This document shows positions 706 to 34,715 of a DNA stretch of 64,000 bases, piece by piece; within the stretch, counting starts at the first letter, position 1; every line of letters begins with the position of its first letter. Source of the stretch: Promethearchaeota archaeon (GTDB lineage Archaea > Asgardarchaeota > Lokiarchaeia > Sigyniarchaeales > SOKP01). The notes below the pieces were generated by a model, which had not been told where the DNA came from, ran no database searches, and was given only the letters and a program-made list of their open reading frames with translations. The stretch is from contig JBHLPW010000002.1 in assembly GCA_048939015.1 (NCBI GenBank), forward strand, positions 32,001-96,000. The letters are read 5' to 3'. Made by a program: the position numbers and the translations under genes.

Positions 706-3276
706 TTAGTCACATTCTTCTGGTATAACTAAAGGCTGGGTTCCAGTTTGGTTGCCAATTAGTTTTAATATCTCAGGACCAAAAACATTAGATAATATTT
801 CATTCATCTGTTTTCCGCCTAAATAGCTTTGACAGCCTAAATGAAGTTTATGAAAGGTATCACCTAGGTTTTCTTCAACTTCCTTAATGAATTCGATTAT
901 TTTATCTTCTAATGTTGGTGATGGAGTCTCGTTCAGTAAAAAGACTACTTTAAATTCTTTATTGGTAAAAAATCCACCTGAAAGATGGCCAAGGCTAAAC
1001 TTTATTGATAAAATTTCGCCTACTTTCAATGCATGGCTCGCTATATGATCCAATGCTGTGAGAAAACCAGAAAAAATTGTATTATCAACATCTTCAGTAG
1101 TAAAATTTAATTCATATTGATTAGCACCACTTTCTCGATGTTGTACCAGTAATTTCTGAATATTTTCTATATCTGGATCGACTATAAAGGGTTTTGTTAA
1201 GAAATTATAGATATCCTCAGACGAGTTTTTTAGCACTTTGAACAATTTTTTGTTTATATAACCATACTCAGGGCCAGTTGGTTCTTCCCAACTTGGATCA
1301 TTTATCAATTCTGTTGCTGCTCGTCCGCTATTTTTCATTATACCTACTTGCGCTCCAAAAACGATTGCTAAATGAAATTCAAAGGCAGAAATATCTCCAC
1401 CGTTTATTCCAATAAGTTTAACTTTACTTGGTTCAATACCAGATTTCATTATATCATACCAATATTGAATCGGTTCTCTAATACTGAAATCTTTTCCTTC
1501 TGTAAAATGAACTGTACTATATCTTTTATCTAATTCAACGTGAGCAGGCATATGACTTGGAACATAACCAATTGTTTTTATTTGATCTGGGTAGTTATCT
1601 TGGATTTCTCCTACTGTACCGCTAATTCCTGCTTTGGTACCACCTGAAATTATTGTTCCTTCAAAATTCCTAAAAGCTTCAATTATATTAGTGTTAAATA
1701 TTTCTAAATTTCGTTCAATACGTTTATCTGTCCCCCCAGCAATAATTACAATAGGCTCATCAAGATTTCTTTCCATTTGTTTTATTTCGGAATCTAATGC
1801 CAAAGTGGACTCATTAATCATTTTATCAGTTTTCTCAACTATATTTGGATGAAATAAAATCCCCAATCGAAGAACTTGTCTGATAAAATCGATGCCTTTT
1901 AATTTATCTTTTATTAGTTTAAGGTTATTCAGAGTATTTAGAGTAGTTTCAATCATCCAAATATCAGAGCTGAATCTTATTCCTTTTAAATAATAATCTA
2001 AAGCTTCATTTACATTTCTAAGAAATAAGTTAAATAAACCTACGTCAAAAAAAGCCCATGGAGTATCGACCATTACTTCTATTTGTCTTAACCGTATTTT
2101 AATTGCTTTCTGAATCATATCATAATTTCTTTCAATATGAACTAAATCTCCTGTTTGCTGAATAACTAGGATTAAATAATTACCTAAAGGATATGGATCT
2201 CCTGGATTCACTTTTAATGCTTGTTTATAGCATTCCAAAGCTTTAGTATAATTATTTTGACTTTTATATGTACCTCCTAATGATGACCATCCATTTGAAT
2301 CAAAAGGATTTCTTTGAGCTGCCTCTATTAAAAATTTCTGACCCTGAATAAATGCTGGGCTTGAGGGATTTTTTTTGTATTTTTGATGATGAGATACACC
2401 CAAATCTCTTAAAACTTCTGCTACTTCTAATTCTGATACTTGTTTAAAGGCTTCAGTTTTCATCAATTCATTTAAAATTTCAATACTTTTATCCATATCG
2501 TTAATTGCCATCGCCAATCTCGCAATTCTATAACCAATTTTTAAATTCTCTTTGTCAGCTTCATAGACCATTTCTAATCTCTCTATTTCAGACTTTATTT
2601 TTTCATTAGACATATAAGTGATTATGGTTGATTCATAATCCCGCATTTTTTTCATGATTTTATCTAATGATTCATCTTCAATAGTCAATAATGATTTTAC
2701 TCGGGTGAGTTCTTGTTCATATGGTTTAGGGACTTTAAAGTCGTGTTGGTTAAAGACTTTGTATTGATTCGCAGCCCATCCATAACTCAAATATGTACAA
2801 ATTTGAATTTCTGCTTTTAAATTGAACATTTTCTCAGGGATATTAAGTTCAAGTCTATCATATATCTTTAAATCAGGCATCAACTGAACAGTGTAGGTCT
2901 GAAAATGTCCAAGAGAAGTACTTATCTCACTTAGTTCGGAGATTTCCAAACCATCTACAGTATCAAATAAAAAATTATCTCGAATTGCTTCACTAACAGC
3001 ATTTAATTCGTTGATATTTGGTAAAAGTATCCTAAATCCGATTAAATCAGTAATTTCTAGAAAAGGATTGGTAATTTTCTTTTCTGATTTAAAGAGTTTG
3101 TTTGCAAAACTAGAAATCTTCTTTACTCGCCCTTGTATGATGAATTCAGATGAATGACCTCTTACTATATTCTTGAGGATCTTCTTCATAATTTTATGAA
3201 ATTCTTTGTAAAATGGACGAATTTCTTTATATTTATTAATTTGCTCTTCGTATGGTTTGCGTTGTTCTAATTCCAT
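706..3276 (-). CDS. Multidomain protein: degenerate RelA/SpoT-like nucleotidyltransferase, TPRs, SLOG (TRPM/LSDAT-like) and C-terminal longin-like domain
   Basis: GRVKKISSFANK, ITDLIGFRI and AEIQICT (RelA/SpoT-like); WSSLGGTYKSQNNYTKALECYKQALKVNP (TPR); IVIIAGG, IISGGTKAGISGTVG, INGG..SAFE and SGRAATEL (SLOG); DNTIFSGFLTALDHIA..GEILSI (Asgard longin-like). Confidence 0.75.
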   Translation of the reverse strand: MELEQRKPYEEQINKYKEIRPFYKEFHKIMKKILKNIVRGHSSEFIIQGRVKKISSFANKLFKSEKKITNPFLEITDLIGFRILLPNINELNAVSEAIRDNFLFDTVDGLEISELSEISTSLGHFQTYTVQLMPDLKIYDRLELNIPEKMFNLKAEIQICTYLSYGWAANQYKVFNQHDFKVPKPYEQELTRVKSLLTIEDESLDKIMKKMRDYESTIITYMSNEKIKSEIERLEMVYEADKENLKIGYRIARLAMAINDMDKSIEILNELMKTEAFKQVSELEVAEVLRDLGVSHHQKYKKNPSSPAFIQGQKFLIEAAQRNPFDSNGWSSLGGTYKSQNNYTKALECYKQALKVNPGDPYPLGNYLILVIQQTGDLVHIERNYDMIQKAIKIRLRQIEVMVDTPWAFFDVGLFNLFLRNVNEALDYYLKGIRFSSDIWMIETTLNTLNNLKLIKDKLKGIDFIRQVLRLGILFHPNIVEKTDKMINESTLALDSEIKQMERNLDEPIVIIAGGTDKRIERNLEIFNTNIIEAFRNFEGTIISGGTKAGISGTVGEIQDNYPDQIKTIGYVPSHMPAHVELDKRYSTVHFTEGKDFSIREPIQYWYDIMKSGIEPSKVKLIGINGGDISAFEFHLAIVFGAQVGIMKNSGRAATELINDPSWEEPTGPEYGYINKKLFKVLKNSSEDIYNFLTKPFIVDPDIENIQKLLVQHRESGANQYELNFTTEDVDNTIFSGFLTALDHIASHALKVGEILSIKFSLGHLSGGFFTNKEFKVVFLLNETPSPTLEDKIIEFIKEVEENLGDTFHKLHLGCQSYLGGKQMNEILSNVFGPEILKLIGNQTGTQPLVIPEECD

Positions 3277-3839: not shown

Positions 3840-5900
3840 TTAAGCTGTAGGAGAAACCTTTTTTTGTAAACCTCTTAAAATTTCTTCATATAATTTCTCT
3901 ATAAAACCCTCAAAATCATTCTCAGTATACTTCACATTTAACATCTGCCATAATAAAACAGGTATGTCATCCTCATTATCATATACTGGAATAATTTTTA
4001 ACATTCCCTTTTTTCTCATCTGGAATGCAGCTTGCCATTCATCTTTAACAGCATTAGATTTTACTGAATTTTTCGAGCAGAAAAGTACGAATATATCCGT
4101 ATTTTTTAGAGTATCTTCCATGAATTCTACGATGTTTTGTTTACTGTCAGCTTGCCAATACGAAACCTTTTTTATTTCTGGATATACTTCTAATTCTTTC
4201 ACTATATCTGATATTCGAAAATGCTCAGCATCCAAAGTAGAATAACTGAGAAATACTCTCTGGTTTTTAATGTCCTCAAGTGGTGATACTGGTGCTATTT
4301 CTTTTGCTTTTTGATTAAAGGCGATTGATTTTGATGCTGAAAAATATTCCGCGTCAATTTCCCGATTTTTAATCATTTCAAGAATTATTTGTTCGATTTG
4401 ACTTTCATCTTTAACATCACTCTTTTCAACAATATCCATGAGTTCAAGGCGGGCAAATTTAGTTCCATAGTTCAAGATAGTCTTTTTGATCTTTTTCTTG
4501 ATATTAAACTGGAAGTCCTTACAATAATCAATTTTTTCTTCAATTTTCTCTAGTAATTCAGAAAGTTCATATTCTCTTGCTAATTCTTTTATTTCAACTA
4601 GTTTTAAAATTGCGTCATAAAATTTACTATTTTCAATTAGATTTTCAATTTTAGATAATTTCTTTTGTATCTTTTTATCCATTTTAGCTTGTTCTTTATC
4701 TCTCTTAATTTCTTCTTCCAGTGTTTTACACTGTTCTATTTTTTCTTCTGCTTCTTTCAAAATTTCTGATAATTCATATTCTTGTGCTATTTGTTTAACT
4801 TTTTCTAATTCTCGAAATGCATTTCTTAGCTTATTATCTTCAATTAAATCTTCAATTTCAGATAACTGAGTTTGAAGTTCGTCTTTAACTCTCTGTTCTT
4901 CTAATTCTTCTCTTTTTTCTATTTTAAGTGTATTAACTTCCTTTAATTTTACCTGCGCCTTTTTCATTAATTCTATCAATCCAAAATTTCTTGCAGATGC
5001 TATTATATTATTTAGATTTGCAATAGCTTCATCATATCTATTTCCTCTAATTAATTCATCAATTTCTGACATTTTTTGCTGAAGACCAGTTTTAATTTTT
5101 CGTAGTCCCTCTTCTCTTTCCTCTTTGGAAATTTCTTTAAAGATAATAACAAAATCCCTTACTCGAGCATTTATCTCATGATTAGTGATCATATCGTCAA
5201 CAATGGTTTCAAGAGTTTCACGTTTTATTCCTGTTTTTGATATAATTTCGAAAAAAGGCAGTTCCTTTGATTGAAATTGCATGGTTTTGATAAAATCAAT
5301 AGTTTTTCCTTCAACTAATTGTTTATCCTCCCAATCAGTACCAACTACTACTTCCTGTTTAATTTCGATAGGTTCAACTTCTAATACCTTCCGTTTCATA
5401 GGTTTAGCCTTTACTTCTTTTACTTTCGTCGATTTAACACGTCGAAATATTAATTCTCCTTCCTTACTTACAACAGCAACAACATTTGTTCCAATTAAAC
5501 CAATCCCAAAAATCAAACATAAATAGAATCCAGCTGTAAAGGTTATAGGATTTACAATTACTTGATTTAATGAGATTATAGAAGGATAGATCATTAAGCT
5601 AATTAAAATTAAAAGAAAACCAATTCCACCGAATAGGAGTGCCTTTTTTTTTCTTTCTGGGGTCAATAGTATAATTGAGATAATGGCAAGTGCAACACCT
5701 ACCCACCCCCCAAAAATTAAAGCAATATAACCCTCATATTCTGTCGTATAACCTTCCCATACAGGAGTTTCGGGTGGTGGTGGATATGGAGGGTGATGTT
5801 CTAAATAATATGGAAGAAATGCTGAAACCAATACAATTATAATTAAGATTCCATAAATTAATCTTATAAAATTGAATTTCTGTATTCTAATTTCTGTCAT
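3840..5900 (-). CDS. 4-TM membrane protein with PCI/winged-helix-like domains, three helical repeats and a C-terminal TIR domain
   Basis: Four N-terminal hydrophobic segments; two wHTH/PCI-like segments (IVDDMITNHEINARV, IILEMIKNREIDAEY); TIR motifs VFLSYSTLD, FVLFCSKNSVKSNAVKDEWQAA and KIIPVY at about 3870-4259. Confidence 0.85.
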   Translation of the reverse strand: MTEIRIQKFNFIRLIYGILIIIVLVSAFLPYYLEHHPPYPPPPETPVWEGYTTEYEGYIALIFGGWVGVALAIISIILLTPERKKKALLFGGIGFLLILISLMIYPSIISLNQVIVNPITFTAGFYLCLIFGIGLIGTNVVAVVSKEGELIFRRVKSTKVKEVKAKPMKRKVLEVEPIEIKQEVVVGTDWEDKQLVEGKTIDFIKTMQFQSKELPFFEIISKTGIKRETLETIVDDMITNHEINARVRDFVIIFKEISKEEREEGLRKIKTGLQQKMSEIDELIRGNRYDEAIANLNNIIASARNFGLIELMKKAQVKLKEVNTLKIEKREELEEQRVKDELQTQLSEIEDLIEDNKLRNAFRELEKVKQIAQEYELSEILKEAEEKIEQCKTLEEEIKRDKEQAKMDKKIQKKLSKIENLIENSKFYDAILKLVEIKELAREYELSELLEKIEEKIDYCKDFQFNIKKKIKKTILNYGTKFARLELMDIVEKSDVKDESQIEQIILEMIKNREIDAEYFSASKSIAFNQKAKEIAPVSPLEDIKNQRVFLSYSTLDAEHFRISDIVKELEVYPEIKKVSYWQADSKQNIVEFMEDTLKNTDIFVLFCSKNSVKSNAVKDEWQAAFQMRKKGMLKIIPVYDNEDDIPVLLWQMLNVKYTENDFEGFIEKLYEEILRGLQKKVSPTA

Positions 5901-20410: not shown

Positions 20411-21991
20411 TTACCAAATTAGATTAGCAATTATATCTTTAGTTGTTTCTGCTTGTTTTTTATTCAGTATTTTTCGAATACGCAGATCATTGATAGCATC
20501 ATCTAGGCGTGTGTCTAGGTTTTTCATTTCCATTAAATTATTTTTATCTCCTTGAGTCTCTACAAGTTCGATCATTGAATTTTCTTTATTCATTAAATCT
20601 CTTAATTTCTGTCTAAAACTAGCTTTCACTTTAGTTCTTACTACTTTCCCTCCATCAATTAAAATGGGTAATACGGGAGCTCTTTCAGTCGTTCGATTTG
20701 TATTGGGGTCCGTGAAGAAAAAGATATAGATTGGGATACCTACTATGACATTTTGTGACTTTAATTCAAGAGTATAGTTATTGAAGAAAGCCTGTACATT
20801 TGTCATTTCACTATCTTTAATCGATTCAATGTTATCCAAACAAGCTTGTTTTTCTGTTTTAATTTGTGCTAATACATCCTCAGCAGATGTTAAATCTTTA
20901 CTTAAGTCACTATGTTTTGCCTCAATTTGTTTTTCGACTTCAGATTTCTTACGTTCTAACTCACGTAGTTTTTGCTGTTTAGTTTTCTCTAGATCTGAGA
21001 TTTCACGTTGTACATTTCTCCGTAATTGTGCTATCTCATTTTTATACCTTGCTATAGAGTCTCCTAATTCACGATATTTAACATCGATATCTTTTAATCC
21101 CTCTTCTACTAAAAAGAGATCTCGTTGGTTAATAGCGTTTTTCAAACCATCCACGCTTTGTTTGAGTGTACTTAGATGATTATTAAGTTCTCCGGTTTTG
21201 TCATTGATTTTGTATTTTCCAAGCTTTACGAGTTCTTCTGGAGATTTTTCTATTTCTCGTTCTTTTTCTGCTTGTATTTCTTTATTCAATATTGCAAGTT
21301 GTTTCTCTTCTTCTCCTGTATCTACTTTTGTATCTCTAATTTTATCAGCTTCTTTGCTTCCTTTTTCGATCCATCTCTCGCATAATTTTATTATAATATC
21401 GCTATAAGAATCTAACGTTTTAACATCTGTTTGTGAAACGAATTCATTAATTTCTGGTACTATTTTAATCTGATTTACACTTTTTGAAATAGATCCTCCT
21501 TCCAACATAAAATAGGGAGTAGAGTGAGCCCCTAGATTATATTGATTAAGAAAAAAGTTTTGAAAATATCCTACTTCATTTGTATTAAACAAAGCTTCTT
21601 GAATAACTATACCACGCTTGAAGTTTTTGGCTCTCTTTAGATAGGAATTATTATAAGATTGTAAAGAATTCAAAAAAGACACAGGATCTGCGCCCTTCAC
21701 AACATTTTCAGGTCGAGGGGGCATCTGAGCGAATTGTCCAACACTTAATTTTTCTTGTTTATTTAAAAGATAACTACAGACACAAGCTCTTGTATCGCTT
21801 AAGGGAATTAAGCGAACAGGCCAAAATGCTGTAGTTATTTTTGAGATTTTCCCTAGCTTTTTTAATGATTTGCCATAAATACCTACACATTCAATCAAAC
21901 CCATGGCAAGTTCGTTAAGTAGGCTTGCTTGACTTCGAGCGGGAGTTATTTCACCCATATTAATTAAAAAAGGTGTTACTTTATCAACCAT
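20411..21991 (-). CDS. Hypothetical protein with a long central coiled coil
   Basis: E/K/Q/L heptad-rich region at about aa 200-400, flanked by globular segments; no TM or signal peptide; no recognised family. Confidence 0.75.
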   Translation of the reverse strand: MVDKVTPFLINMGEITPARSQASLLNELAMGLIECVGIYGKSLKKLGKISKITTAFWPVRLIPLSDTRACVCSYLLNKQEKLSVGQFAQMPPRPENVVKGADPVSFLNSLQSYNNSYLKRAKNFKRGIVIQEALFNTNEVGYFQNFFLNQYNLGAHSTPYFMLEGGSISKSVNQIKIVPEINEFVSQTDVKTLDSYSDIIIKLCERWIEKGSKEADKIRDTKVDTGEEEKQLAILNKEIQAEKEREIEKSPEELVKLGKYKINDKTGELNNHLSTLKQSVDGLKNAINQRDLFLVEEGLKDIDVKYRELGDSIARYKNEIAQLRRNVQREISDLEKTKQQKLRELERKKSEVEKQIEAKHSDLSKDLTSAEDVLAQIKTEKQACLDNIESIKDSEMTNVQAFFNNYTLELKSQNVIVGIPIYIFFFTDPNTNRTTERAPVLPILIDGGKVVRTKVKASFRQKLRDLMNKENSMIELVETQGDKNNLMEMKNLDTRLDDAINDLRIRKILNKKQAETTKDIIANLIW

Positions 21992-22097: not shown

Positions 22098-25000
22098 TTA
22101 TCTCAATATTTCCTCATAGAGTTTCTGGATAAATTCATCAAAGTTATCTTTTGTAAATTTAACATTCAATAAAGGCATTAATAAGAATGGAATTAAGTCC
22201 TCTTGTTCATATACGGGAACTATTTTCATCAAACCTTTTTTCCTCATTTGAAAAGCTGCCTGCCACTCATCTTCCACGGCTTTAGATTTTATAGAATTTT
22301 CTGAACAAAAGAATACAAATACTTTACTTAGTCTTAAAGTTCTTTCCATATAAGTTACTATACTCTCACCGCTATCTGCTTCCCAAAAGAATACTTTATC
22401 TATTTTTGGAAATGCTTCTAGTCGTTTGGCAATTTCATCAATATTGAAATGCTCCGAATCTAGAGTGGAGTAGCTTAAAAATACATTTAAGCCTCGAGTA
22501 AAGTATGTTCTTATAGCATTTATATATAGTGGATAGTGAGCGAAATCTTCTGTAGTTACATTTCCTTCATAAAGGTCTCTTTTGAATTGTCTTATTCTTT
22601 CGAAATTTTCTACAATAACATTTTTATCGGGAAAGGTTTCTGAAAAAACCTGCTCCCAATTGTTCTTATCAGTAATTATCGAATTTAATTGAATGAAATC
22701 AAGAGACTCCATTTCATCGGTAGTTGAGGGAAGCTTCTTAGGTGTTAATAATTTAGTTTTACTTTCAATTGTAGTCCTTATATATTCAGGGATTCCTTCT
22801 TGCCACCAAAGAGATTTATAGACACCTTTAAGTTTTGCTTTAGCAAAACTACGGATATTCGTTTCAAAAATTTCAACATCATTTTTGGCAGTCTCAATTT
22901 GTTTTTTGAGCGCTGCTCGTCTTTTCATTCTGGGTCTTATAACTAGGAAAGTGGAAATGGCACCTACAACACCAACAGAAATAACAATAATTGCGATTAT
23001 CACTCCGGGATCTATCCCCGCCGGTAATTCCCCTGAAATATACAAAATAGTTTCATCTGTATTATCGACTTCATTATCATCTCGAAAGCCTCCCGATTTT
23101 GAGCTATATGTTTCATTAATTTCATTATTAGGATCCAATATAATTTCCACTAACACGTTTCCACCTTGGTATAGTTCAGCTCCCTGTATGAGATCATTAT
23201 ATACTTCATCCACATCCAAGTCTATGGGGTTATCAGTGTTGTTAAATAAAATTACATTCAAATGTTCGATCCATATTATAATTATAACATTTTTGGCATC
23301 CCATATTCCATTATTTGTGATTGTGATATTTACTACAAAGGGTTTACCTATATCTGCTTCTATCGGATCAAACTTTAAGACTGCTAGATTAGGCATAGGA
23401 TACCAATAACCTAGCAATGGTTTTGTACCTAAGCCTGTTTCAATACCGTCTAAAAAGGTGTCTCCATCCGTATCATTATTATGAGGATCTGTCCCATTAG
23501 TAAATTCATGATAATTTATGAGGAAATCAGTATCAACATCAGTGATATTATCAGCATCGTTCAATGGATTTAAAATATTAAATACTTCCCATCCGTCAGG
23601 CATTCTATCTGAATCTGTATCAGAATTAAGAGGATTTGTAGAGTTTTTCCACTCCCAAAAATCAAATAACTCATCAGAATCAGAGTCAGGGTTTGTTACA
23701 TTTGTACGATATCCGTCTAACCCTAAAAGATATTCCTCAAGATTAATAAATTTATCTCCATCGGTATCTACGTCAAATCGATAAAATAATGGAAACTTAT
23801 CTTGGTTATAAGCCGTTCCAAAAATTGTCTGAGGATTATCTCCAATTGCATTATAATCTAAATCTAAACCACTATAATCATCCCAAAAATTCCCCACTGA
23901 TCCATCATCCCATATGTTTTTCTTCCCATTATCTTGAGCTTGTAAATTATTCCCTATAAAATTGTTATAGTAGATGCTATTATTCTCACAATATTCATTC
24001 TGGATAAATAAACCAAGTTCACTATTCCTTATTGTATTTCTAAGAAATGAGCTATTAGAACAGCTACTTAATATTATCCCATATTGACTATTTCCATCTA
24101 GATTATTATCTGTAAAGTTATTTAGCGAACACAACTGAGCTAATATTCCGTTAACATTATTAGATATTTGATTATTTATAAATCGGGAATAAGTACTGTA
24201 AACAATTTGGAATCCAGCTCCAAAAAATCCACTCTCCATTAATATTTTGGTACTCTCTGTTAACGTATTTCCTTCATATGTATTATTAAAGCCGAAAACA
24301 TCTTCTATACCAATTAAATTTTGTGAAGCAGAACAATTCATAATTTTACAGTTATTACTAAAGCCAAGATTAATGCCATAAGCGGTATTCATTGATGCAT
24401 TAATATTGTAGAGTGAAATATTATCGCAATATAGGATATTAAGAGCTAAAGTACACTTAGTAAGATTCAAATTTGAAATTATTGAATCAGTACACCCAGA
24501 TAAAATTATTTGCCCGGCATTCGCAAAATTAATCGGTTTCAGATTATTTATATGATAATAATAATAAATAGGCTTCCCATTTACTAAATTTGATGTATCA
24601 ATAAAGAGGATAGGTTCAAAAAACGTTGGATGAATATTTATCCCACAATTAGTCATTAAATTTCTTGATAGGTTATTGTTATCACATGATCCTGGTGATG
24701 CTGAAAGGATGTATACTCCTCCGAGAAAGTTATCATATAAATAGTTATTAATTATGTTGTTTTCATAACTATCTTCGATTTCTATTCCCATTCCATTCTG
24801 ACTAATATTATTATTAGATATAGTTATATTGAAGCAATCGACTAAGCTTAAAGCTACTCCAAGTCCGAAACTAATTGCAGGATCGATGAACTTATTATAA
24901 TTTTTAGTAATATTATTATTTTCGATTGAAGAGTTACTGTTTTGAATTGATATAATACCCAAATATGTGTTTTGTGTGAAAGTATTATCCCTTATTGTAT

Positions 25001-25793
25001 CGTTCATGCAATAAAACAAGGATAAAGCAGTCGTAGTATAAGATATTTCTAGGTCAAAAATTTGGGTTCCACTGCAGTTAATAAGGATTAATTGTCCTGG
25101 TTGAGGAAAATTACCTGGTACCAAATTTTTCTCATTAAATTTATAATAAAGAACCTTTCCATTAATTAAATTGGTTTCATCAATTGAGTGGGAGATTAAA
25201 TCCTCAACTAATGGAAGTCCACCATTAAATGGAAAATTTAATCCACAATTTGTGAAATTATTTTCAGTTAGAGTGATATATCTGCAATCTTGGATTGTTA
25301 TACCAGCGTGACTGTTATTATCAAAAATATTTCTAAAAATCGTATTATTATTAGACGATTGAAGTCCAACTCCTTTCCCTGCTTCATGATAATAATGGTT
25401 AATATTATTATTAAATGAATTATTGAATATAAAATTAAAGTTACTTCCCAATAATGTTATTCCAGCACCACCATTTCTGCAAACGAAATTTTGTGTAATA
25501 TTATTATACTCACACACATCTAAGACTATTCCTGTATTTTCATTGTATGACAAATTATTACGATGTATTAAAGTGAAGAAACTACTTAATGAATAAATTC
25601 CTGCATCATTGTACATCATGTTATTATTTTTAATTGTTGCATTGTTTACTTCGATTAGTTCGATTCCAAAATCATTAAAGTTTGCTGTACTCTTTTCAAT
25701 AGTGATATTTGTACAATATGATAAGGAAAGCCCATTTTTGGTACAATTATTGGTAATTATATTCGAAATAATATAATTTCTACCACCAAGCAC
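22098..25793 (-). CDS. C-terminal part of TIR receptor 1: NosD/CASH beta-helix, Ca-binding DxDxD repeats, CARDB-like Ig, TM, Swt1-like HEPN, TIR
   Basis: N/I/G-rich beta-helix repeats; GNFWDDY cap; DTDGD/DSDSD repeats; PNLAV..ITNNG..DPNNEINE (CARDB-like); TM at about 22938-23003; ETNIRSF..WW..IP..LDF.QL..II..NW..F...F (Swt1-like HEPN); VFLSYS..VEDEWQAA (TIR). Confidence 0.8.
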   Translation of the reverse strand: MLGGRNYIISNIITNNCTKNGLSLSYCTNITIEKSTANFNDFGIELIEVNNATIKNNNMMYNDAGIYSLSSFFTLIHRNNLSYNENTGIVLDVCEYNNITQNFVCRNGGAGITLLGSNFNFIFNNSFNNNINHYYHEAGKGVGLQSSNNNTIFRNIFDNNSHAGITIQDCRYITLTENNFTNCGLNFPFNGGLPLVEDLISHSIDETNLINGKVLYYKFNEKNLVPGNFPQPGQLILINCSGTQIFDLEISYTTTALSLFYCMNDTIRDNTFTQNTYLGIISIQNSNSSIENNNITKNYNKFIDPAISFGLGVALSLVDCFNITISNNNISQNGMGIEIEDSYENNIINNYLYDNFLGGVYILSASPGSCDNNNLSRNLMTNCGINIHPTFFEPILFIDTSNLVNGKPIYYYYHINNLKPINFANAGQIILSGCTDSIISNLNLTKCTLALNILYCDNISLYNINASMNTAYGINLGFSNNCKIMNCSASQNLIGIEDVFGFNNTYEGNTLTESTKILMESGFFGAGFQIVYSTYSRFINNQISNNVNGILAQLCSLNNFTDNNLDGNSQYGIILSSCSNSSFLRNTIRNSELGLFIQNEYCENNSIYYNNFIGNNLQAQDNGKKNIWDDGSVGNFWDDYSGLDLDYNAIGDNPQTIFGTAYNQDKFPLFYRFDVDTDGDKFINLEEYLLGLDGYRTNVTNPDSDSDELFDFWEWKNSTNPLNSDTDSDRMPDGWEVFNILNPLNDADNITDVDTDFLINYHEFTNGTDPHNNDTDGDTFLDGIETGLGTKPLLGYWYPMPNLAVLKFDPIEADIGKPFVVNITITNNGIWDAKNVIIIIWIEHLNVILFNNTDNPIDLDVDEVYNDLIQGAELYQGGNVLVEIILDPNNEINETYSSKSGGFRDDNEVDNTDETILYISGELPAGIDPGVIIAIIVISVGVVGAISTFLVIRPRMKRRAALKKQIETAKNDVEIFETNIRSFAKAKLKGVYKSLWWQEGIPEYIRTTIESKTKLLTPKKLPSTTDEMESLDFIQLNSIITDKNNWEQVFSETFPDKNVIVENFERIRQFKRDLYEGNVTTEDFAHYPLYINAIRTYFTRGLNVFLSYSTLDSEHFNIDEIAKRLEAFPKIDKVFFWEADSGESIVTYMERTLRLSKVFVFFCSENSIKSKAVEDEWQAAFQMRKKGLMKIVPVYEQEDLIPFLLMPLLNVKFTKDNFDEFIQKLYEEILR

Positions 25794-25850
25794 GGAGAGA
25801 CCAGTTGAAGTATGGGACAGATTAAAGTTGGTAATTACTGAATTATTACA

Positions 25851-26825
25851 CTAAATTAAAATAATCTGACCTGGAGATCCATAACTTACAAAATCAGGTG
25901 TAGCTAAACTCGTTTTATTAAAGTAAAAATAAACCGCTCTGTTGTTAACTTGATTACTTTCATCAATTTTGTTTGAGGACATTTCTGTGATTGAGCCATC
26001 AAGACCAATACCACATCTTTTCATTTCATTACCATTGATTGTATTATTAATTGTATATCTAATCAGTACTCCATATTGATCATTACGATAAGCTAGATTA
26101 TTGGAGATCGTATTATTTTGACCTCCTTCTACAGAAATCCCACTTCCTCCATTATCATGAACATTATTTAGTAAAATTTTATTAAAATCACAATTAGATA
26201 CAATCCTTATTCCATCATTATTGTTATCACTAGCTTCATTTCCTATAATTGTATTATTTATACATAAACTTTCGAGAAATACTCCCGTAAAAATATTATC
26301 ATTTACAGTATTTGCCGATAAAGTGTTATTTTCACTGTTGCTTAAATAGATCCCATAAGCATCATTCATCGAACAATCATTATTGATTATTGTACCATTA
26401 CATGTAGAAACTAATTTTATTCCTGCTTCTTTAGAATATCTGTCTCCATCTCCAGAATTAAATAATGTACAGTTTTCAATGATAAAAGGCACAATCGAAT
26501 TATTAATCAGAATACAACTCTCTGTTTCCTGTCCATCAATTACAACATTTTTAATAACAAATGGATCACTCCAAGTTCCTGATCCATTACACCATTCATT
26601 AGTTGCAGCGGTAATCGACCAATTTAAAGAGGGATTACTCTCATCAATGTGTATTTTATTTGAAAGAACCCAGTATCGAGCGAGTTTTAATTTGGAATCA
26701 TACTTTTCGGTTATAATTTTATTTGTACTAAATGATTTCATCCAGAGATCGCTACATAAAAAGGATGAGATTAAAAGGGTACTTAATAATAAGGATGAAA
26801 TTAAATCTCTACATTTTATTTTCAC
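25851..26825 (-). CDS. N-terminal part of TIR receptor 1: signal/TM and parallel beta-helix repeats
   Basis: GTG start with GGAG SD; hydrophobic N-terminus; WCNGSGTWSDPFVIKNVVIDGQ cap motif shared with the 2187-aa paralog. Confidence 0.8.
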   Translation of the reverse strand: MKIKCRDLISSLLLSTLLISSFLCSDLWMKSFSTNKIITEKYDSKLKLARYWVLSNKIHIDESNPSLNWSITAATNEWCNGSGTWSDPFVIKNVVIDGQETESCILINNSIVPFIIENCTLFNSGDGDRYSKEAGIKLVSTCNGTIINNDCSMNDAYGIYLSNSENNTLSANTVNDNIFTGVFLESLCINNTIIGNEASDNNNDGIRIVSNCDFNKILLNNVHDNGGSGISVEGGQNNTISNNLAYRNDQYGVLIRYTINNTINGNEMKRCGIGLDGSITEMSSNKIDESNQVNNRAVYFYFNKTSLATPDFVSYGSPGQIILI

Positions 26826-27022: not shown

Positions 27023-30000
27023 TCAACGTAAAATCTCTTCATAGAGCCTTTGGATAAATCCATCTAAATCATCTTCAGTATATCTTACATTTAAAAATGG
27101 CATTAAAAGAATGGGAACATCTTCTTCATTTTCATATACAGGAATAATTTTAACAGCTCCCTTCTTATTTAATTGATAAGCTGCTTGCCATTCTCCTTCA
27201 ACAGATTTCGAATCTTTTGAGTGTTTAGTACAAAATAAGACGAAAGTGTTGGAAATACTTAAAGTCTTTTCCATAAATTCAACAATATTTTGACCACTAT
27301 CTTTAATATAATAATAGACTTTGTCAATTTCCGGATATTTCTCAAGGCCTTCTACGATTTTATTGATGTGGAAATGATCCAAATCCAATGAGGAATAACT
27401 TATAAAAATGTTGAATTTCCTTGGTTTTACAACAGTGGGAACAACTTTTGGTCCTTCTTCAACTTTTGATGCAGTTTTAGAGGCTTGTTCCATTTCTTTT
27501 TCTATTGTAGGAGTTGGTTTCTTTTCTTCCTTTAACTTCTCTTTCACTGCAGGTTTAGCAACAGGTTCTCTTTTAATTTCTCTGAGAATTCCTGACTCAA
27601 TATCCTTACATTGTTCAATTTTTTCATTCGCATTGTTAAAAATATCAAAAAACTCATACGTTTCTGCTGTATCTTGAATTTTTCCTAAATTTTTATATGC
27701 TAATTTAATATTTCTTTCTTTTATGAGATAATCAACAAAATCTAATTTTCCTTCTAGTTTTGTTCTCATCTTTTCTTTCTTTTTTTCACTTATCTCTTTT
27801 TTCTTCAATCCTGATACTGTCATTCTCTTCTTTATCAATATCGCAGCACCAGTCACTCCCACAGCAACTATCGCAATAACCAATACAATTATAAAAATTT
27901 CAGTGGGAAAACCAGAAGGACTAGGGATATTATTTCCTGTATTACCCACACTATTATGAATAATGATATCAGTTCCATTATCCGATAAATTATTCCCATT
28001 AATATTATTATAATTAGATTGATCGAGATATATGCCTACACCATTATTCGAAATTACATTATCAGTGATTTTATTATTATGACTGTTTATCAGATAAATA
28101 CCATTCTCAACATTCAAATTTATTGTATCTGAATTATTGAATATATTTATATGGTTACTATTTATCAATTTAATACCATTTAAATCATTAGAATTAATAG
28201 TGCTACTTGTAATATTTACATATTGGCAGGAATCTAAGAGAATTCCATTTCCATTGTTAAAAGAACAATTAAGATATATTAATACTCCATATGATAGATT
28301 AATTAATTTAACTCCTGCGTCGTTTTGATCATTACCAGAACTATAAAAGGAGCAATTATTTATTGTAAAGGAAATATTAGAATTACTAATTGTTATGCAA
28401 CTACCTGTACTTTGACCATCAATTTCTAATGATTCAATAATGAATGGATCAGTCTTGGTTCCAGAGCCAGAACACCATCCCTGTTTAACTGCTTCCATCC
28501 ATGTATAATCTCCACTACCACTATCGTCAATTATAAGCGGATTTAATGGCCAATAGTTATAATACTTTTCAATCGAAACTGATTGATATCCTATATTTCC
28601 AGCTGTGTCATTAGCATAAAAAATGATAGTTATTGTCTCACGTCCTTTTTTATTCCATTCTTCTTCATCTATGATCCCTGTACTAGTAGTCGTTTTATTT
28701 GTTATACCATCATCAATCGTATACCATATATAATCGGGGTTTAATTCTGTAATTGTTATGTTGAATGAAGGTGAAATTGTATCAAATCTATCTCCTGGAT
28801 GTGGCGAATTAATACTAATCATTGGAACATGAGTATCTTTTAATATATTCACTTCTGCAAATCCCATATTAGCAAATGTGTCATTTGCATAAAAAGTAAT
28901 ATTTACTGAACCATCTGGAAAAATATCCCATATAGTTTGATTTATAGTGCCACTCCAGATCGTAATATTCATATTAGCTGAAGAATATGATTTGTTGCTT
29001 ACAACGTACCAAGCATTGTGAAAATTACTATCAATAATTGATATATTATAATTAGGGGCTTTATAGCTAAAAGCTTGGTTATAAATTGGATTATGGATTG
29101 TAATTAGAGGTCCTAAGGTATCTTTTCTAACATTAATTTCGTGCGCTGTTTCCACTCCCCGCGAGTCATTTACATAAAAACGGATCAAAACAGTTCCATT
29201 TGCCATACTATCCCAAGCTGAAAAGTTAATAGTACCATTAGTTGTAAAGGTGTAGATAGACGTATCGTTGCCTAAAGTATACCACATTGTGTGACTGATG
29301 CCTTCCTCAATAATAATAGTATAATTTGGAGGAGTCTGTTGAAATATTTCATTCTCAGTAGGAGAAATTACGGAAAAAACAATAGGATCCCACCAAATTG
29401 GAAGTTTATCTTGACTTGGGGCTGTGCCTCCAATATTTAAATAAGGTACGTCTCCAATTCCATCATCATCCACATCCTTGCCCGAATAATCAGACCAATA
29501 ATTCCCTATTGTACTCGTATTCCATTTATTCTTGTAGCCATCATCATATGCGTTTAAAGCATTAGTATAAAAATAATTTTGAGATATTAAATTATATGAA
29601 GCATCACTTTGTAGATATAGTCCACGCTGTGTATTATTTATTAATACATTATTAGTCAAGTTGTTAGAGTTCCCATATTCGAGTTCGATTCCCCTAAAAT
29701 TTTCAATAAGTACATTACTTTTAATAGTATTGTTATTAATCAAAGTTCCCTGAAAAAATATACCCTGATTCGTATTATTCTTTATAATATTCTCAAAAAT
29801 ACAATTAAAACGAATGTCATTTCCCGAACAGTAAATTCCCTGATAGTTATTACTTATTTTATTATTTGAAATGTTATTATTATAGCAATTATACAACAGT
29901 ATGATTCCATAATTATTACTATTACTAATTGTATTATTTGAAATATTATTATTATTACAGCTCTCCAAAAAACCATTCAATTCAATGCAACTTCCTTTAT

Positions 30001-33000
30001 GAAATTGGACATAATTTAGCGAGACTACAGAATTATTGGATCTATGTATAGAAATTCCATCATAATTGTATTTAATTGTATTATTATAAATAAAACTTAA
30101 ATCACAATCTCCTAAATATAAACCAGTATTGGTATTATTATATATCATCTGTTCATAGATGTAGCTATACTGACAGTAATAAAATTCGACTCCACTAGGA
30201 TTATTACTCACTGTATTATTAGAAAAGGTAGTATTGATGCAAAACCTAATAGTAATTGAACCAAAAGGATTAAATACAATAGTGTTCTTCTGAATCGAAG
30301 TATGATTAGAATTCTCAATAAAAACTCCATAATATTGGTTGTTTGTAATCATATTTTCAATTAGACTAATATTAAGACCACTATCAATCGAAATACCTAG
30401 ATAATTATTGTCACTTATGGTACTATTTTCTAAAACACCATAAGTGACGTTATTAAAAATAATTCCAGAACCAGAATCGCTGGCATTCAAAAATTTACAA
30501 TCTTGAATGAGAAATTGAACTATAGAATTACTTATTTTAATACAATTTGAAATATTATTACCATTTATGATTAAATTCTTCAAGAGATAAGGATCTGTTA
30601 ATGTACCAGAACCAGAACACCATAATAAATCTGAACTTGCTTTAGACCATGTAAAATTCCCACTTCCTGTTTCATCAATAATAATAGGTGAAATAGTATA
30701 ATTGCAAACATTCCATGTAAAATTATTATTTAATCCATTATTATCTTCAAAACACTTTATACTATTTTCATTTATGATATTTCCATAGATTTCAGTATTA
30801 TTACTCGATTCCAGATAAATCCCATATTCGAAATTATTATTTATAAAAGTAGTTTTTATAGTATTATTTTCACAATTTTCTAACAATATTCCAATTCCAT
30901 TGTTAAACGAACAATTACTATTAATAATCGCTACGTTGCTAACATTCACCAATTTAATTCCAGCGGATCCAGCAATAGAACTGCTATTATAAATTTTGCA
31001 ATTATTAAAAATGATATATTTATTTGAATTTTTAATTTCAATACAACTGTTTAAATCTTGGCCATTAAAAATTAAACCATTAAAAATATATGGATCATTA
31101 GAAGTACCAGAGCCTTCTATAAGAGTTCTCCACCATGGTTGATTTCTTGCCCAAGTCCAATTATGCGCTCCAACACCAGATGCCACTCCATCGATTTCAA
31201 TAGGTTCACGATAAATTGAATGGATATCATTAAACCAAATTTTACCCATAAAATTCGGCTTATATCTGAAGTCATTACGAATGGCATAGTACATATGAGG
31301 TGTGTATATATATACGTATGGATAAAGATCCTCCACAATATATTTTTGCATATTATTGTATAACGACTTTCTTATAGAAAAATCAGTTTCATTTAGAGCT
31401 TGTTCCATTAAACCCTCGAGAACTGTATCGTTAACTTGACCGCGATTATATATTGAAGAATTTGAATAAAGATATTCTAGTAATACACTTGGATCATTGT
31501 AAGTTATACCTTCATAATAATAACCAAACAATTCAAGCGTTCCTACGTTATAGTACAATCTCATATAAAAATCAAACCATGAGAGAGGGTCATCGATAAC
31601 TTCAATACCAATTAAATTCAACGAATAGCTCCACGAGTTATAAATATTGGCAAATATTGGAGAACTATCTAAATAAGAATAATCTAAACTTGCAAAAATC
31701 GTAGAAGTCCAAAGACCTTCATCAGTTCCAGGATAATCGGTATCCCATCCAACACCAAAACCCATACTTTGCATAGTTTCTCTAGCTTTTGTAATATTGC
31801 AAGTAGCTATCTGATTAGAATAATTCGAATATAGCATTCCATAAGGTATTGGAGATCTTAATCTATTCGCATGCCCTTCGGCAATTTCATTAATTATATA
31901 AGAATAATTTGTTGCGTAAGAAATAGCTTTTCTCCATGTTTTATCTAGAAGTGTGTTGTTCATTCCTAAATAAATGAAATCTGAAGAGTTCTCTGGACCA
32001 ATAAGATTTATATTAGAAATATTTTTAAATGAATTTAACATTGAAGTGTCTAATGGATCCCAACTAGAAATTATACCTACCCTGTCTAAAAAATCTATAA
32101 CTCCTAATGACATGAATTTTTGTCTGTCTGCCATTGATTGAATCCTTATAATATTTACATATTTAATATCAGGAGCTTCTACCCAATAATCTTTAAAAGC
32201 TATAAGTCTTACTCTATCATCTTGAATATATTCAAGATACTCAAAAGGACCAGTCCCAATCAAATCATCTGTATTAAAATCAAGATATCTATAAAAGGGA
32301 GTTGAAGATGGAGATAATATTACTGATCCCTCAAAGCACAATAATCCTTCAAAAGCAGCAAAGGGTTTATTTAATACAAAGCGAATCATATAATCGTCAA
32401 TTACAGCAGTTCTATTAATTATAGGGGTGTTGTCGTTCCAAAAGTATACAGAAGTAAATTGGTTAAGTGTTGTATTTGAGGGTAAAGTTCCACTTGTATT
32501 CATAAAATAGTGTAACCTATCAATACTCCACTTTACTGTACTAGCATTAAACGGAGTTCCATCATGAAACTTTATATTTTGTCTCAGTTCAACAGTATAA
32601 TTTAATTTATCTGCAGACCATGTTCCCATTGATAAAGCTAATTTTGGAATTATTCTATTTTGTCGAGAACTTAAATTATATGTAAAAAGTGTCTCAAAGA
32701 TTTGAGAGGTTACTTTTAAGATATAATTATCTGATCGATAATGAGGATCAAAGTTATTCACAAGAAAATACTCAGGTAAATGAAATGTTCCATAATTTAA
32801 AACTTCTGGATCATTATTTACATCAATTCCATCATCCCAAATAGGATAATTATCTATGCTTGCAGCTACACCCTGGATATTTTCATATGACCTGTCTCCT
32901 ATCCCATCATCATCTAAATCTCTGTAATCATAATCAGACCAATAATTACCGATTGATCCATTATCCCAAAAATTAGTTCCATCATCATAAGCTAAGGGAG

Positions 33001-33586
33001 GATTTCCAATAATAAAATTACTAAACATTAGGTTATTATAACTGGAAGCATCTAAAAAAATATTATATCTACCATTATTTTCGAATATATTTCCTGTAAG
33101 ATTAATATCATGGGAATTATCTAAGCTAATTCCGTAACCATTATTGATTGAGATGTTATTTTCTTCTAAAGCGCCATTTCCTGCGTTTTGAATTTTAATT
33201 CCTGCCCCAAAAGCCGTATACATCGAATTGTATAAGATACAGTTTTTTATTTTGAAATATACGTTAGAATTTCGTATATCAATACAACTACTTGAATTTT
33301 GTCCATCAATGGTAACATTCTCAATAGTATAAGGATCAGTAATGGTTCCTGAACCACTACACCATGGCTGAGAAGAAGCTGTTGTTGCCCATTCAGAATC
33401 TCCATCTATTGAAATTGGAGTTCCTGTAAGATCCCAATATGCTGCAAATTTAATTTTCCCATTTTCATTTGATTTTAATCTATTTTCTACGATTAATTCA
33501 GTATAAAATATATTATTTACAAAAATTGAAGAGAAGAAAAAAATCAACAATATTGAGAGAATTATCATTTTACTTTTTTTTTTCAT
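27023..33586 (-). CDS. Single-pass TIR receptor 2: beta-helix, family-5 ABC solute-binding domain, beta-helix, 3 Ig-like, beta-helix, TM, helical bundle, TIR
   Basis: IFETLF..PKLA..WSADKLNYTVELRQNIKFHDGTPFNASTVKWS and IGTGPF (OppA/DppA-like, about 31220-32800); IIFYANDTAGNIG (Ig-like); TM at about 27835-27900; IFISYSS..VEGEWQAA..KIIPVY (TIR). Confidence 0.88.
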   Translation of the reverse strand: MKKKSKMIILSILLIFFFSSIFVNNIFYTELIVENRLKSNENGKIKFAAYWDLTGTPISIDGDSEWATTASSQPWCSGSGTITDPYTIENVTIDGQNSSSCIDIRNSNVYFKIKNCILYNSMYTAFGAGIKIQNAGNGALEENNISINNGYGISLDNSHDINLTGNIFENNGRYNIFLDASSYNNLMFSNFIIGNPPLAYDDGTNFWDNGSIGNYWSDYDYRDLDDDGIGDRSYENIQGVAASIDNYPIWDDGIDVNNDPEVLNYGTFHLPEYFLVNNFDPHYRSDNYILKVTSQIFETLFTYNLSSRQNRIIPKLALSMGTWSADKLNYTVELRQNIKFHDGTPFNASTVKWSIDRLHYFMNTSGTLPSNTTLNQFTSVYFWNDNTPIINRTAVIDDYMIRFVLNKPFAAFEGLLCFEGSVILSPSSTPFYRYLDFNTDDLIGTGPFEYLEYIQDDRVRLIAFKDYWVEAPDIKYVNIIRIQSMADRQKFMSLGVIDFLDRVGIISSWDPLDTSMLNSFKNISNINLIGPENSSDFIYLGMNNTLLDKTWRKAISYATNYSYIINEIAEGHANRLRSPIPYGMLYSNYSNQIATCNITKARETMQSMGFGVGWDTDYPGTDEGLWTSTIFASLDYSYLDSSPIFANIYNSWSYSLNLIGIEVIDDPLSWFDFYMRLYYNVGTLELFGYYYEGITYNDPSVLLEYLYSNSSIYNRGQVNDTVLEGLMEQALNETDFSIRKSLYNNMQKYIVEDLYPYVYIYTPHMYYAIRNDFRYKPNFMGKIWFNDIHSIYREPIEIDGVASGVGAHNWTWARNQPWWRTLIEGSGTSNDPYIFNGLIFNGQDLNSCIEIKNSNKYIIFNNCKIYNSSSIAGSAGIKLVNVSNVAIINSNCSFNNGIGILLENCENNTIKTTFINNNFEYGIYLESSNNTEIYGNIINENSIKCFEDNNGLNNNFTWNVCNYTISPIIIDETGSGNFTWSKASSDLLWCSGSGTLTDPYLLKNLIINGNNISNCIKISNSIVQFLIQDCKFLNASDSGSGIIFNNVTYGVLENSTISDNNYLGISIDSGLNISLIENMITNNQYYGVFIENSNHTSIQKNTIVFNPFGSITIRFCINTTFSNNTVSNNPSGVEFYYCQYSYIYEQMIYNNTNTGLYLGDCDLSFIYNNTIKYNYDGISIHRSNNSVVSLNYVQFHKGSCIELNGFLESCNNNNISNNTISNSNNYGIILLYNCYNNNISNNKISNNYQGIYCSGNDIRFNCIFENIIKNNTNQGIFFQGTLINNNTIKSNVLIENFRGIELEYGNSNNLTNNVLINNTQRGLYLQSDASYNLISQNYFYTNALNAYDDGYKNKWNTSTIGNYWSDYSGKDVDDDGIGDVPYLNIGGTAPSQDKLPIWWDPIVFSVISPTENEIFQQTPPNYTIIIEEGISHTMWYTLGNDTSIYTFTTNGTINFSAWDSMANGTVLIRFYVNDSRGVETAHEINVRKDTLGPLITIHNPIYNQAFSYKAPNYNISIIDSNFHNAWYVVSNKSYSSANMNITIWSGTINQTIWDIFPDGSVNITFYANDTFANMGFAEVNILKDTHVPMISINSPHPGDRFDTISPSFNITITELNPDYIWYTIDDGITNKTTTSTGIIDEEEWNKKGRETITIIFYANDTAGNIGYQSVSIEKYYNYWPLNPLIIDDSGSGDYTWMEAVKQGWCSGSGTKTDPFIIESLEIDGQSTGSCITISNSNISFTINNCSFYSSGNDQNDAGVKLINLSYGVLIYLNCSFNNGNGILLDSCQYVNITSSTINSNDLNGIKLINSNHINIFNNSDTINLNVENGIYLINSHNNKITDNVISNNGVGIYLDQSNYNNINGNNLSDNGTDIIIHNSVGNTGNNIPSPSGFPTEIFIIVLVIAIVAVGVTGAAILIKKRMTVSGLKKKEISEKKKEKMRTKLEGKLDFVDYLIKERNIKLAYKNLGKIQDTAETYEFFDIFNNANEKIEQCKDIESGILREIKREPVAKPAVKEKLKEEKKPTPTIEKEMEQASKTASKVEEGPKVVPTVVKPRKFNIFISYSSLDLDHFHINKIVEGLEKYPEIDKVYYYIKDSGQNIVEFMEKTLSISNTFVLFCTKHSKDSKSVEGEWQAAYQLNKKGAVKIIPVYENEEDVPILLMPFLNVRYTEDDLDGFIQRLYEEILR

Positions 33587-33752: not shown

Positions 33753-34715
33753 GTGAATAATATGGAAAAAGAAGATAAATTAACTTTAATTCTAATTACT
33801 AGTTTAATAATAAGTATAATATTAATAATAGTTGTACTCTTAATCCCTTTTCTATTTAACTTCAGTATGAACCAAGCCTTGAGAGATTTACTTCCTGGTT
33901 CGTCATATTTCTTCCGATTTATAACCGAATTTGGAGGTACATTCATTTATTTAGTAATAATTTTTACAATTTTTTGGGGAATTGATAAAAAAATTGCCAA
34001 TTCATTATTAATGGTTTATGTTTCATCAAATTTTGTAAATTATTATGCTAAAGCGATAATTGCGAATGAAAGGCCACCAGAAGCTCAATGGCTTTTGATT
34101 GGAGCCTCTCATCTTAGTACTCCAAGCGGCCATGCGATGAGTTCAACGGTATTTTATGGATATTTATCAATGAAAACAAAAAGAATTGCTATGTGGATAA
34201 TTTCTATAGTTGTAATAATGCTTGTCGGGCTCTCCAGAATTTATTTAGGAGTTCATTGGGTTGGCGATGTTTTGACTGGTTGGTTCTTTGGAATTGTAAT
34301 TTTACTTTTGGCTTATATTTTCGAAGATAAAATTCAAGATTTTACTAATAAGTATAATATCGTTTACTTATATATCGGACTAGCTGTTTTAGGATTGTTA
34401 GTTATGATAATAACCGACATCATTTATCAATCATCATATAACTTCGGAGAACCAGGAGGTCAAATGATAGGATTAGGAATAGGCTTAGCATTAGAACATA
34501 AATATGTTAACTTTGAAATCTCTTATCAACCTGGAGAAAAATGGAAAATAATTCTTAGAATCTTACTAGGAATACTCTTAATTGCTATAATCTTTTTGGG
34601 TTTGTATTTAGTTATTGATTCTGATATTTTATGGTTAAGTGCTTTACATTATATAGTAACTCTTATATTAGGGATATTTATATGGCCATTAATTTTCACA
34701 AAGATTGGACTTTAG
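33753..34715 (+). CDS. PAP2-family membrane lipid phosphatase
   Basis: KxxxxxERP, PSGH and SRIYLGVHWVGDV catalytic motifs; multiple TMs. Confidence 0.92.
   Translation: MNNMEKEDKLTLILITSLIISIILIIVVLLIPFLFNFSMNQALRDLLPGSSYFFRFITEFGGTFIYLVIIFTIFWGIDKKIANSLLMVYVSSNFVNYYAKAIIANERPPEAQWLLIGASHLSTPSGHAMSSTVFYGYLSMKTKRIAMWIISIVVIMLVGLSRIYLGVHWVGDVLTGWFFGIVILLLAYIFEDKIQDFTNKYNIVYLYIGLAVLGLLVMIITDIIYQSSYNFGEPGGQMIGLGIGLALEHKYVNFEISYQPGEKWKIILRILLGILLIAIIFLGLYLVIDSDILWLSALHYIVTLILGIFIWPLIFTKIGL

Follow-up and report, generated by a model that had tools for sequence, protein, structure and literature searches.

A gene in the 64,000-nt stretch of Asgard archaeal DNA analysed here (the window) encodes a 2187-aa membrane protein, P0001, that carries a complete solute-binding protein (SBP) domain of the ATP-binding cassette (ABC) transporter type in its ectodomain and a TIR domain at its extreme C-terminus. 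The window lies on a 152.7-kb contig (C21) of a metagenome-assembled Promethearchaeota genome (94.9% complete, 6.5% contamination). We explain P0001 as a receptor-like surface protein in which a transporter-derived binding head is joined to a TIR tail that signals on clustering, probably via an NAD-derived nucleotide read by a SLOG domain, and we give this explanation about an even chance (roughly 0.5). P0001 would then be one member of an Asgard family of glycosylated single-pass proteins, each combining a variable ectodomain with one transmembrane helix, a module of helices, and a TIR that is strongly conserved. A complete cluster-C Venus-flytrap domain would have been taken out of its transporter context and placed close to the distal end of a stalk in which beta-helix and Ig-like units account for over 1000 residues; there it would most likely serve as a ligand- or partner-binding head. 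Binding of a ligand or of a multivalent surface would bring the receptors together and allow their TIR tails to self-associate; the clustered TIR domains, with their catalytic-type Glu, would convert NAD+ to an ADP-ribose-derived signal, which would be read by the SLOG domain of a RelA/SpoT-TPR-SLOG protein whose gene closes the same TIR-gene island. The steps of this scheme that we infer are ligand binding, clustering, NADase activity, messenger, and output.

TIR signalling has been described in plant NLRs, in membrane receptors of animals, and in cytosolic defence proteins of bacteria. If our explanation is right, surface sensing coupled to TIR chemistry also exists in the lineage closest to eukaryotes, and a class C transporter binding protein has been recruited as a receptor head, beside the LivJ/ANF class of eukaryotic receptors. 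It would also offer tractable parts (the soluble binding domain, the small TIR tail, and the SLOG protein) for studying how Asgard archaea perceive partners, nutrients, and viruses. In a literature search that left subscription journals outside its scope, we found no account of an archaeal TIR protein that is shaped like a receptor and has an extracellular domain for ligand binding, and no mention of binding-protein ectodomains was found in a systematic Thoeris preprint (bioRxiv 10.64898/2025.12.03.692087).

A complete solute-binding domain in a single-pass TIR protein

The P0001 gene is a single uninterrupted open reading frame (ORF) with an ATG start, and its GC content stays even at 28–30% along its length (Table 1). 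Pfam recognizes four families in the product (SBP_bac_5, NosD, Beta_helix, and TIR_2), the NosD and Beta_helix matches forming several blocks on both sides of the SBP_bac_5 domain. The hydropathy profile has no hydrophobic segments other than the N-terminal signal and one transmembrane helix. The original prediction, made from the DNA letters and their translated ORFs, had placed a family-5 SBP between beta-helix blocks of a single-pass TIR protein, as the Pfam matches and hydropathy bear out, and its position for the domain, 31220–32800, agrees with the envelope that we find (31181–32797). All 71 N-X-S/T sequons of P0001 precede the transmembrane helix, where shuffling gives an expectation of 41.7 ± 5.4, and none follows it; Asn accounts for 14% of residues in the outer part as against 4.4% in the tail. 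This distribution fits an extracellular, N-glycosylated ectodomain with a cytoplasmic tail. The ectodomain of this membrane-bound protein is about 1870 aa, and between its SBP domain and the membrane lie beta-helix and Ig-like modules totalling more than 1000 residues. For the Ig-like units (aa about 1400–1683), no Pfam match was found at E ≤ 0.01.

The SBP domain is a whole and true member of the SBP_bac_5 fold family. The Pfam model PF00496 matches aa 312–712 over profile positions 2–366 of 368 (E = 1.4e-47; 163.1 bits against a gathering cut-off of 32.4 bits), and the NCBIfam nickel/oligopeptide SBP model Opp5A_nikA aligns aa 274–772 to its positions 26–468 of 488. When 1.84 billion representative proteins are searched exhaustively with HMMER, query residues of about 17–528 out of 539 cover the entire mature part of ordinary SBPs (560–600 residues) at 35–47% identity to these metagenomic SBPs. 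Identity to solved members is about 20%. An AlphaFold2 model of the domain built with 63 relatives has a mean pLDDT (predicted local distance difference test) of 93.9, and Foldseek matches it to whole solved SBPs (GsiB/YliB, GbpA, DppA, CtaP, NikA, and CntA) with target-normalized template modelling (TM) scores of 0.8–0.9. GsiB (1uqw), GbpA (3m8u), DppA, and HbpA each align with the family profile over its whole length. The other 62 sequences of the SBP alignment agree to 80% or more in 86 columns, and P0001 keeps 73 of these, within the range of the other members (69% to 100%). The completeness that had been read from the letters alone is thus upheld, and the domain is not truncated.

Table 1. 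Features of the P0001 gene and of TIR-island genes in the window; amino acid positions refer to P0001
Feature	Position	Strand	Details
Whole gene P0001	27023..33586	(-)	2187 aa, type I membrane protein, C-terminal TIR
Signal peptide / N-terminal hydrophobic segment	33506..33586	(-)	aa 1-27; hydropathy segment aa 5-27
Beta-helix block 1	32801..33454	(-)	aa about 45-262; WCSGSGTxTDPY cap, GNYWSDY...DxDDDGIGD end motif
Complete cluster-C / SBP_bac_5 solute-binding domain	31181..32797	(-)	aa 264-802
Derived pocket motif GYYYEGITYNDP	31490..31525	(-)	aa 688-699; consensus there GW-x-x-D-Y-N-D-P
Beta-helix block 2	30632..31174	(-)	aa 805-985
Beta-helix block 3	29390..30631	(-)	aa 986-1399
Three Ig-like repeat units	28538..29389	(-)	aa about 1400-1683; basis is repeated sequence motifs only
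Beta-helix block 4	27932..28537	(-)	aa 1684-1885
Single transmembrane helix	27836..27907	(-)	aa 1894-1917, then KKR; hydropathy segment about aa 1890-1920
Cytoplasmic three-helix module	27596..27787	(-)	aa 1934-1997; common to paralogues
Disordered Lys/Glu/Pro-rich linker	27422..27595	(-)	aa 1998-2055
TIR domain	27026..27415	(-)	aa 2058-2187, extreme C-terminus
Glu2132 codon	27191..27193	(-)	invariant in 39 tails; aligned with the Cat1 TIR WDEL Glu
RelA_SpoT-TPR-SLOG protein	706..3276	(-)	856 aa; candidate receiver of TIR-made signal; closes TIR-gene island
Four-transmembrane protein with same TIR tail	3840..5900	(-)	686 aa; directly upstream of SLOG gene
Paralogous beta-helix-transmembrane-TIR gene	22098..26825	(-)	split by one in-frame TAG, 25851-25853

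Pocket, ligand, and relatives

Three of the 13 departures of P0001 from conserved columns cluster in the hallmark pocket segment G-W-x-x-D-Y-N-D-P, which here reads GYYYEGITYNDP and has one residue inserted. When OppA of Escherichia coli K-12 is aligned to the family profile, its Asp445 falls on Thr695 of P0001, and the Trp three residues before this docking Asp, 98% conserved in the alignment, is replaced by Tyr691. The mapping covers the one anchor residue with a published role: Asp445 (Asp419 in S. enterica) forms a hydrogen bond with the N-terminal amine of a peptide ligand and typifies docking in the oligopeptide-binding proteins of Gram-negative bacteria (PMC5736914). Most family-conserved columns of the domain are kept, but the Asp that docks a peptide N-terminus and the Trp beside it are not, and the proposal that P0001 senses peptides is not supported. 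Because the canonical anchor for a peptide N-terminus has been lost, the ligand of P0001 is probably not an ordinary free peptide, and the changed pocket makes a standard peptide an unlikely candidate. The GWxxD motif is kept in a paralogue encoded in the same genome (P0195; 1805 aa, on contig C6) and in the TIR-linked proteins P0011, P0078, and P0052; the docking Asp is also lost in P0023 and P0101. P0001 has in common with the SBPs of Opp/Dpp/Nik/Gsi systems (GsiB, 1uqw; DppA, 1dpp; H. parasuis GbpA, 3m8u; NikA) a full-length homologous fold and most conserved residues; unlike Opp and Dpp SBPs, it has this domain embedded in a 2187-aa membrane protein, without a transporter operon and with the docking Asp and the adjacent Trp replaced.

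Whole-genome searches for BPD_transp_1 (PF00528) permeases and ABC_tran (PF00005) ATPases place none on C21 or C6, so that the lack of ABC permease and ATPase genes first remarked for the window holds for the whole 152.7-kb contig. Elsewhere in this genome, canonical operons of SBP, permease, and ATPase genes occur on C125 and C59, while C12, C32, and C61 carry free-standing SBPs. In a FastTree phylogeny of 200 SBP domains, those linked to TIR form two clades, both apart from the genome's own free-standing SBPs; one of the two unites P0001, its C6 paralogue, and P0052 (local support 95).

The architecture recurs. A search for further proteins combining SBP_bac_5 with TIR, as the original prediction had suggested, yields at least 11 distinct proteins in independent JGI, ENA, and NCBI assemblies (P0001, P0011, P0023, P0052, P0078, P0101, P0189, P0192, P0194, P0195, and P0196). 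The source names of the relatives, Promethearchaeota, Lokiarchaeota, Hermodarchaeota, and Hodarchaeales, are those of Asgard archaea, and the proteins carry only the public names “ABC transporter substrate-binding protein” or “NosD domain-containing protein”. P0011 has two SBP domains, the second likewise nested between beta-helix blocks. P0189 is the positional orthologue of P0001, with which it has in common a flanking set of three SDR genes, a methyltransferase, an NAD kinase, and a 3-hydroxyacyl-CoA dehydrogenase (3HCDH); the two proteins are 45% identical in the membrane-proximal part and tail, and 28–33% in their SBP domains. P0196 is the orthologue of P0195, and the genes of both have the same LRR-protein neighbour. 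This LRR (plus PCI-like) protein of about 720 aa, encoded at L001:10287-12440 (-) and L009:15078-17258 (-), is a conserved convergent neighbour of the C6-type SBP_bac_5-TIR gene.

The product of the next TIR gene on C6 (L001:12619-16710; 1363 aa) combines a Peripla_BP_6/ANF_receptor domain of the LivJ type, the class of binding protein known from ANF receptors and class C G-protein-coupled receptors, with fn3, beta-helix, a transmembrane helix, and the TIR of the family; 12 proteins like it are encoded in other Asgard assemblies. Peripla_BP_6/ANF_receptor occurs in 12 of 34 long proteins whose tail is of the P0001 type and SBP_bac_5 in 6, the others having only beta-helix; judged by these matches, binding proteins of two Venus-flytrap classes serve as heads in the tail family. 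The family-5 assignment of the P0001 head stands, but the LivJ/ANF_receptor fold, which had been set aside among the “other classes” recruited by known receptors, is used by this same family. Venus-flytrap receptors derived from binding proteins include BvgS-type sensor kinases, natriuretic-peptide (ANF) receptors, class C G-protein-coupled receptors, and ionotropic glutamate receptors, and DppA docks to the Tap chemoreceptor. P0001 resembles the receptors of this list in reusing a transporter-type fold as a putative sensing head, and its sister proteins use the ANF_receptor/LivJ class; it differs from them in having TIR as its predicted output domain, and in having a covalently fused head of class C/family 5 that a long beta-helix stalk holds away from the membrane.

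The TIR tail and the SLOG gene

The Pfam model TIR_2 (PF13676) matches aa 2060–2179 of P0001 with 47.2 bits (cut-off 28 bits). An AlphaFold2 model of the tail, built from 39 tails, begins with three bundled helices, continues through a linker of about 50 disordered residues, and ends in a TIR predicted with confidence; Foldseek assigns it a probability of 1.0 against many TIR structures, with Hydra TRR-2 at the top (4w8g; TM score of about 0.78). When the tail sequence is compared with solved structures, the sole match is to the Cat1 TIR, and its marginal E-value (0.011) makes it useful only for placing the Glu. In this alignment, the WDEL Glu of the Cat1 TIR NADase pairs with Glu2132, a residue present without exception in the 39 tails, and we take this position to be that of the catalytic Glu in TIR NADases. 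By sequence, the TIR domain is of the prokaryotic TIR_2 type with a catalytic-type Glu. PADLOC returned ThsB-type matches for the tail that are too weak for a system assignment (E = 3.6e-5 and 6.5e-4).

The genome has 11 TIR_2 matches, of which 3 are in soluble proteins and 8 in membrane proteins ending in the same TIR (...LYEEILR). The TIR domains of these eight paralogues have a median identity of 61%, and their outer or N-terminal parts are unrelated in kind; three of the eight are encoded in the window. Among 151 genomes sampled from the order, the tail profile finds matches in 98, with up to 15 per genome.

P0001 is laid out like the animal Toll-like and IL-1 receptors, with a signal peptide, a large glycosylated ectodomain, one transmembrane helix, and a cytoplasmic TIR. 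Unlike them, it has an ectodomain of beta-helix, SBP, and Ig-like modules, the last forming only part of the stalk, and a TIR of the prokaryotic TIR_2 type; no Pfam match to LRR was found in the ectodomain. No MyD88-like adaptor was identified, the relation of the genome's three soluble TIR proteins to P0001 not having been examined. The resemblance to Toll-like and IL-1 receptors is drawn here in plan only, with no claim to common descent.

The RelA_SpoT-TPR-SLOG gene at the end of the window's TIR island provides the link to a possible output. Full-length orthologues of its product occur in 15 genomes of the order (48–84% identity), and in 12 of these the orthologue has a TIR-tail gene no more than about 2.6 kb away (about 0.7 kb in 9), on the same strand in 11 of the 12; the remaining 3 orthologues are at contig ends. 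The SLOG-adjacent TIR genes range from four-transmembrane forms to single-pass receptors of 1600–1900 residues. At two loci (L006 and L007), the neighbour of the SLOG gene is itself an SBP_bac_5-TIR gene, and in one genome (G133 C34), five tandem TIR genes precede it. The RelA_SpoT-TPR-SLOG protein looks like a receiver for the whole membrane-TIR family.

In type I Thoeris, SLOG domains read cyclic ADP-ribose isomers made by TIR proteins, and type III Thoeris comprises several TIR proteins with a SLOG effector (bioRxiv 10.64898/2025.12.03.692087). This logic leads us to propose an NAD-derived messenger for the TIR-tail family; given the invariant Glu of the tail and the TIR/SLOG linkage in 12 of 15 genomes, Thoeris-like NAD-derived signalling is our best guess. 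Like type I Thoeris (a ThsB TIR with a SIR2-SLOG ThsA) and type III, the archaeal arrangement has TIR genes linked to a SLOG protein and a conserved Glu. Unlike them, its TIR proteins are receptor-like membrane proteins with extracellular domains, its SLOG protein has RelA/SpoT-like and TPR domains in place of SIR2, and P0001 is not itself adjacent to the SLOG gene. A wider proposal is doubtful, though conceivable: a lineage-wide Asgard outside-in pathway in which interchangeable glycosylated ectodomains, with Venus-flytrap heads of two classes, would report ligands or partner surfaces, and a TIR-made NAD-derived messenger would be read by the SLOG-RelA/SpoT effector.

The contig encoding P0192 has a compact version of the island, with the order PAP2, a 526-aa protein, the SBP_bac_5-TIR gene, and the RelA_SpoT-TPR-SLOG gene (L006). 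In the window, PAP2 (33753–34715), the 526-aa gene, and the SLOG gene bracket an island that is expanded by comparison, with three TIR genes and two giant surface-protein genes; the 526-aa gene is 83% identical to its counterpart on the P0192 contig, and the SLOG gene 65%. The 526–530-aa coiled-coil protein, for which no Pfam match was found, recurs inside TIR-receptor islands (window 20411-21991 (-); L006:2849-4429; L045:4354-5943), and may be another of their components. The two giant surface-protein genes (6138-13250 and 13404-20234 (-)), which lie between the TIR genes of the island, encode 2370 and 2276 aa with Big_13, and one product has a sialidase-like carbohydrate-binding module. The TAG-split TIR gene consists of two ORFs in the same frame, 25851-26825 and 22098-25793, with the protein context GQIILI*CNNS at the stop; the TAG could be a recent nonsense mutation or be read through. 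Scans of the window for tRNA and Rfam families gave no matches.

Alternative readings

Several observations weigh against the receptor explanation. The tail model matches TIRs of scaffold and enzyme kinds about equally in Foldseek (Hydra TRR-2, MyD88, MAL, TLR2, SPARTA TIR-APAZ, SARM1, AbTir, and Cat1), which confirms the TIR fold without separating enzyme from scaffold. The SBP domain of P0001 is on a long branch (0.91 versus a median of 0.43 in the FastTree phylogeny), and no SBP domain more than 47% identical to it occurs in 54 genomes of the same genus, so that the changed pocket may be decaying rather than maintained by selection. A distance of 24 kb separates the P0001 gene from the SLOG gene, whose immediate neighbour is a different TIR-tail gene, and the SLOG protein has a match in only 33 of the 151 genomes versus 98 for the tail. 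The length of the stalk is a difficulty for any signal crossing from the SBP head to the TIR. Surface proteins of great length that carry SBP_bac_5 domains in tandem, two to four each, are also encoded in Asgard assemblies (P0002, P0003, P0004, P0007, and others); some of these proteins add Peripla_BP_6, and several end in a bare C-terminal anchor without TIR; with so many multi-SBP proteins lacking TIR, the SBP domain may be a general surface-binding module.

This last point leads to the alternative that fares best, although we consider it unlikely: that P0001 is a structural or adhesive protein, whose modules form part of the envelope or attach the cell to partners or particles, and whose TIR only anchors or oligomerizes the protein without sending a signal. 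Its huge, repetitive, sequon-rich ectodomain would suit such a role, as would the giant Ig-like surface proteins encoded by neighbouring genes, the many relatives that have the same SBP and beta-helix ectodomains on a bare anchor, and the equally good fold matches to scaffold TIRs. The tail, however, shows much stronger conservation than the ectodomain, with its catalytic-type Glu present in all 39 sequences, and tail genes are linked to the SLOG-domain gene in most genomes that have the latter in full length; neither is expected of a passive anchor.

A surface-triggered antiviral sensor, in which the ectodomain is bait or detector for virus attachment and the clustered TIR NADase brings on dormancy or death by abortive infection of the Thoeris or SARM1 type, would work by the same mechanism as our receptor explanation and differ from it in purpose, defence taking the place of nutrient or partner sensing. 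Fast-diverging ectodomains on a conserved TIR would fit such a sensor, as would paralogues in tandem arrays and variable islands (five in G133 C34), the in-frame stop in one neighbouring paralogue, the weak ThsB-type PADLOC matches, and a multi-TIR plus SLOG layout like that of type III Thoeris (bioRxiv 10.64898/2025.12.03.692087). Against this, the TIR sensors of known Thoeris systems are cytosolic, and P0001 is flanked by housekeeping metabolic genes that stay in synteny between genomes, unlike the surroundings of a typical defence island. We regard an antiviral purpose as rather improbable.

Far less probable is that the domain remains the tethered SBP of a distant ABC importer, capturing solutes or peptides and handing them to an Opp/Dpp permease. 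The domain belongs fully to the Opp/Dpp/Nik fold family, archaeal SBPs are normally tethered to the membrane, and Opp-type permeases and ATPases are present elsewhere in the genome; but neither the contig of P0001 nor that of its paralogue has transporter genes, the TIR-linked domains stand in clades apart from the genome's free-standing SBPs, and P0001 has lost the peptide-docking Asp. A stalk of more than 1000 residues, together with a beta-helix block capping the other side of the domain, would also make docking on a permease implausible. That P0001 is an assembly chimera or a decaying gene we discount almost entirely: its source is a metagenome-assembled genome of the completeness and contamination given above, and its SBP branch is long, but the frame is open over 2187 codons, the GC content is even, the conserved columns are kept at a level seen in other members, and the same domain order has been assembled independently in JGI, ENA, and NCBI data, so that recurrence, GC content, and unbroken frame argue, at the level of assembled sequence, against a chimera.

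At the edge of the window, beyond the SLOG gene, a partial ORF (2-640 (-)) has a PADLOC match to mad2 (mads_2; E = 9e-13).

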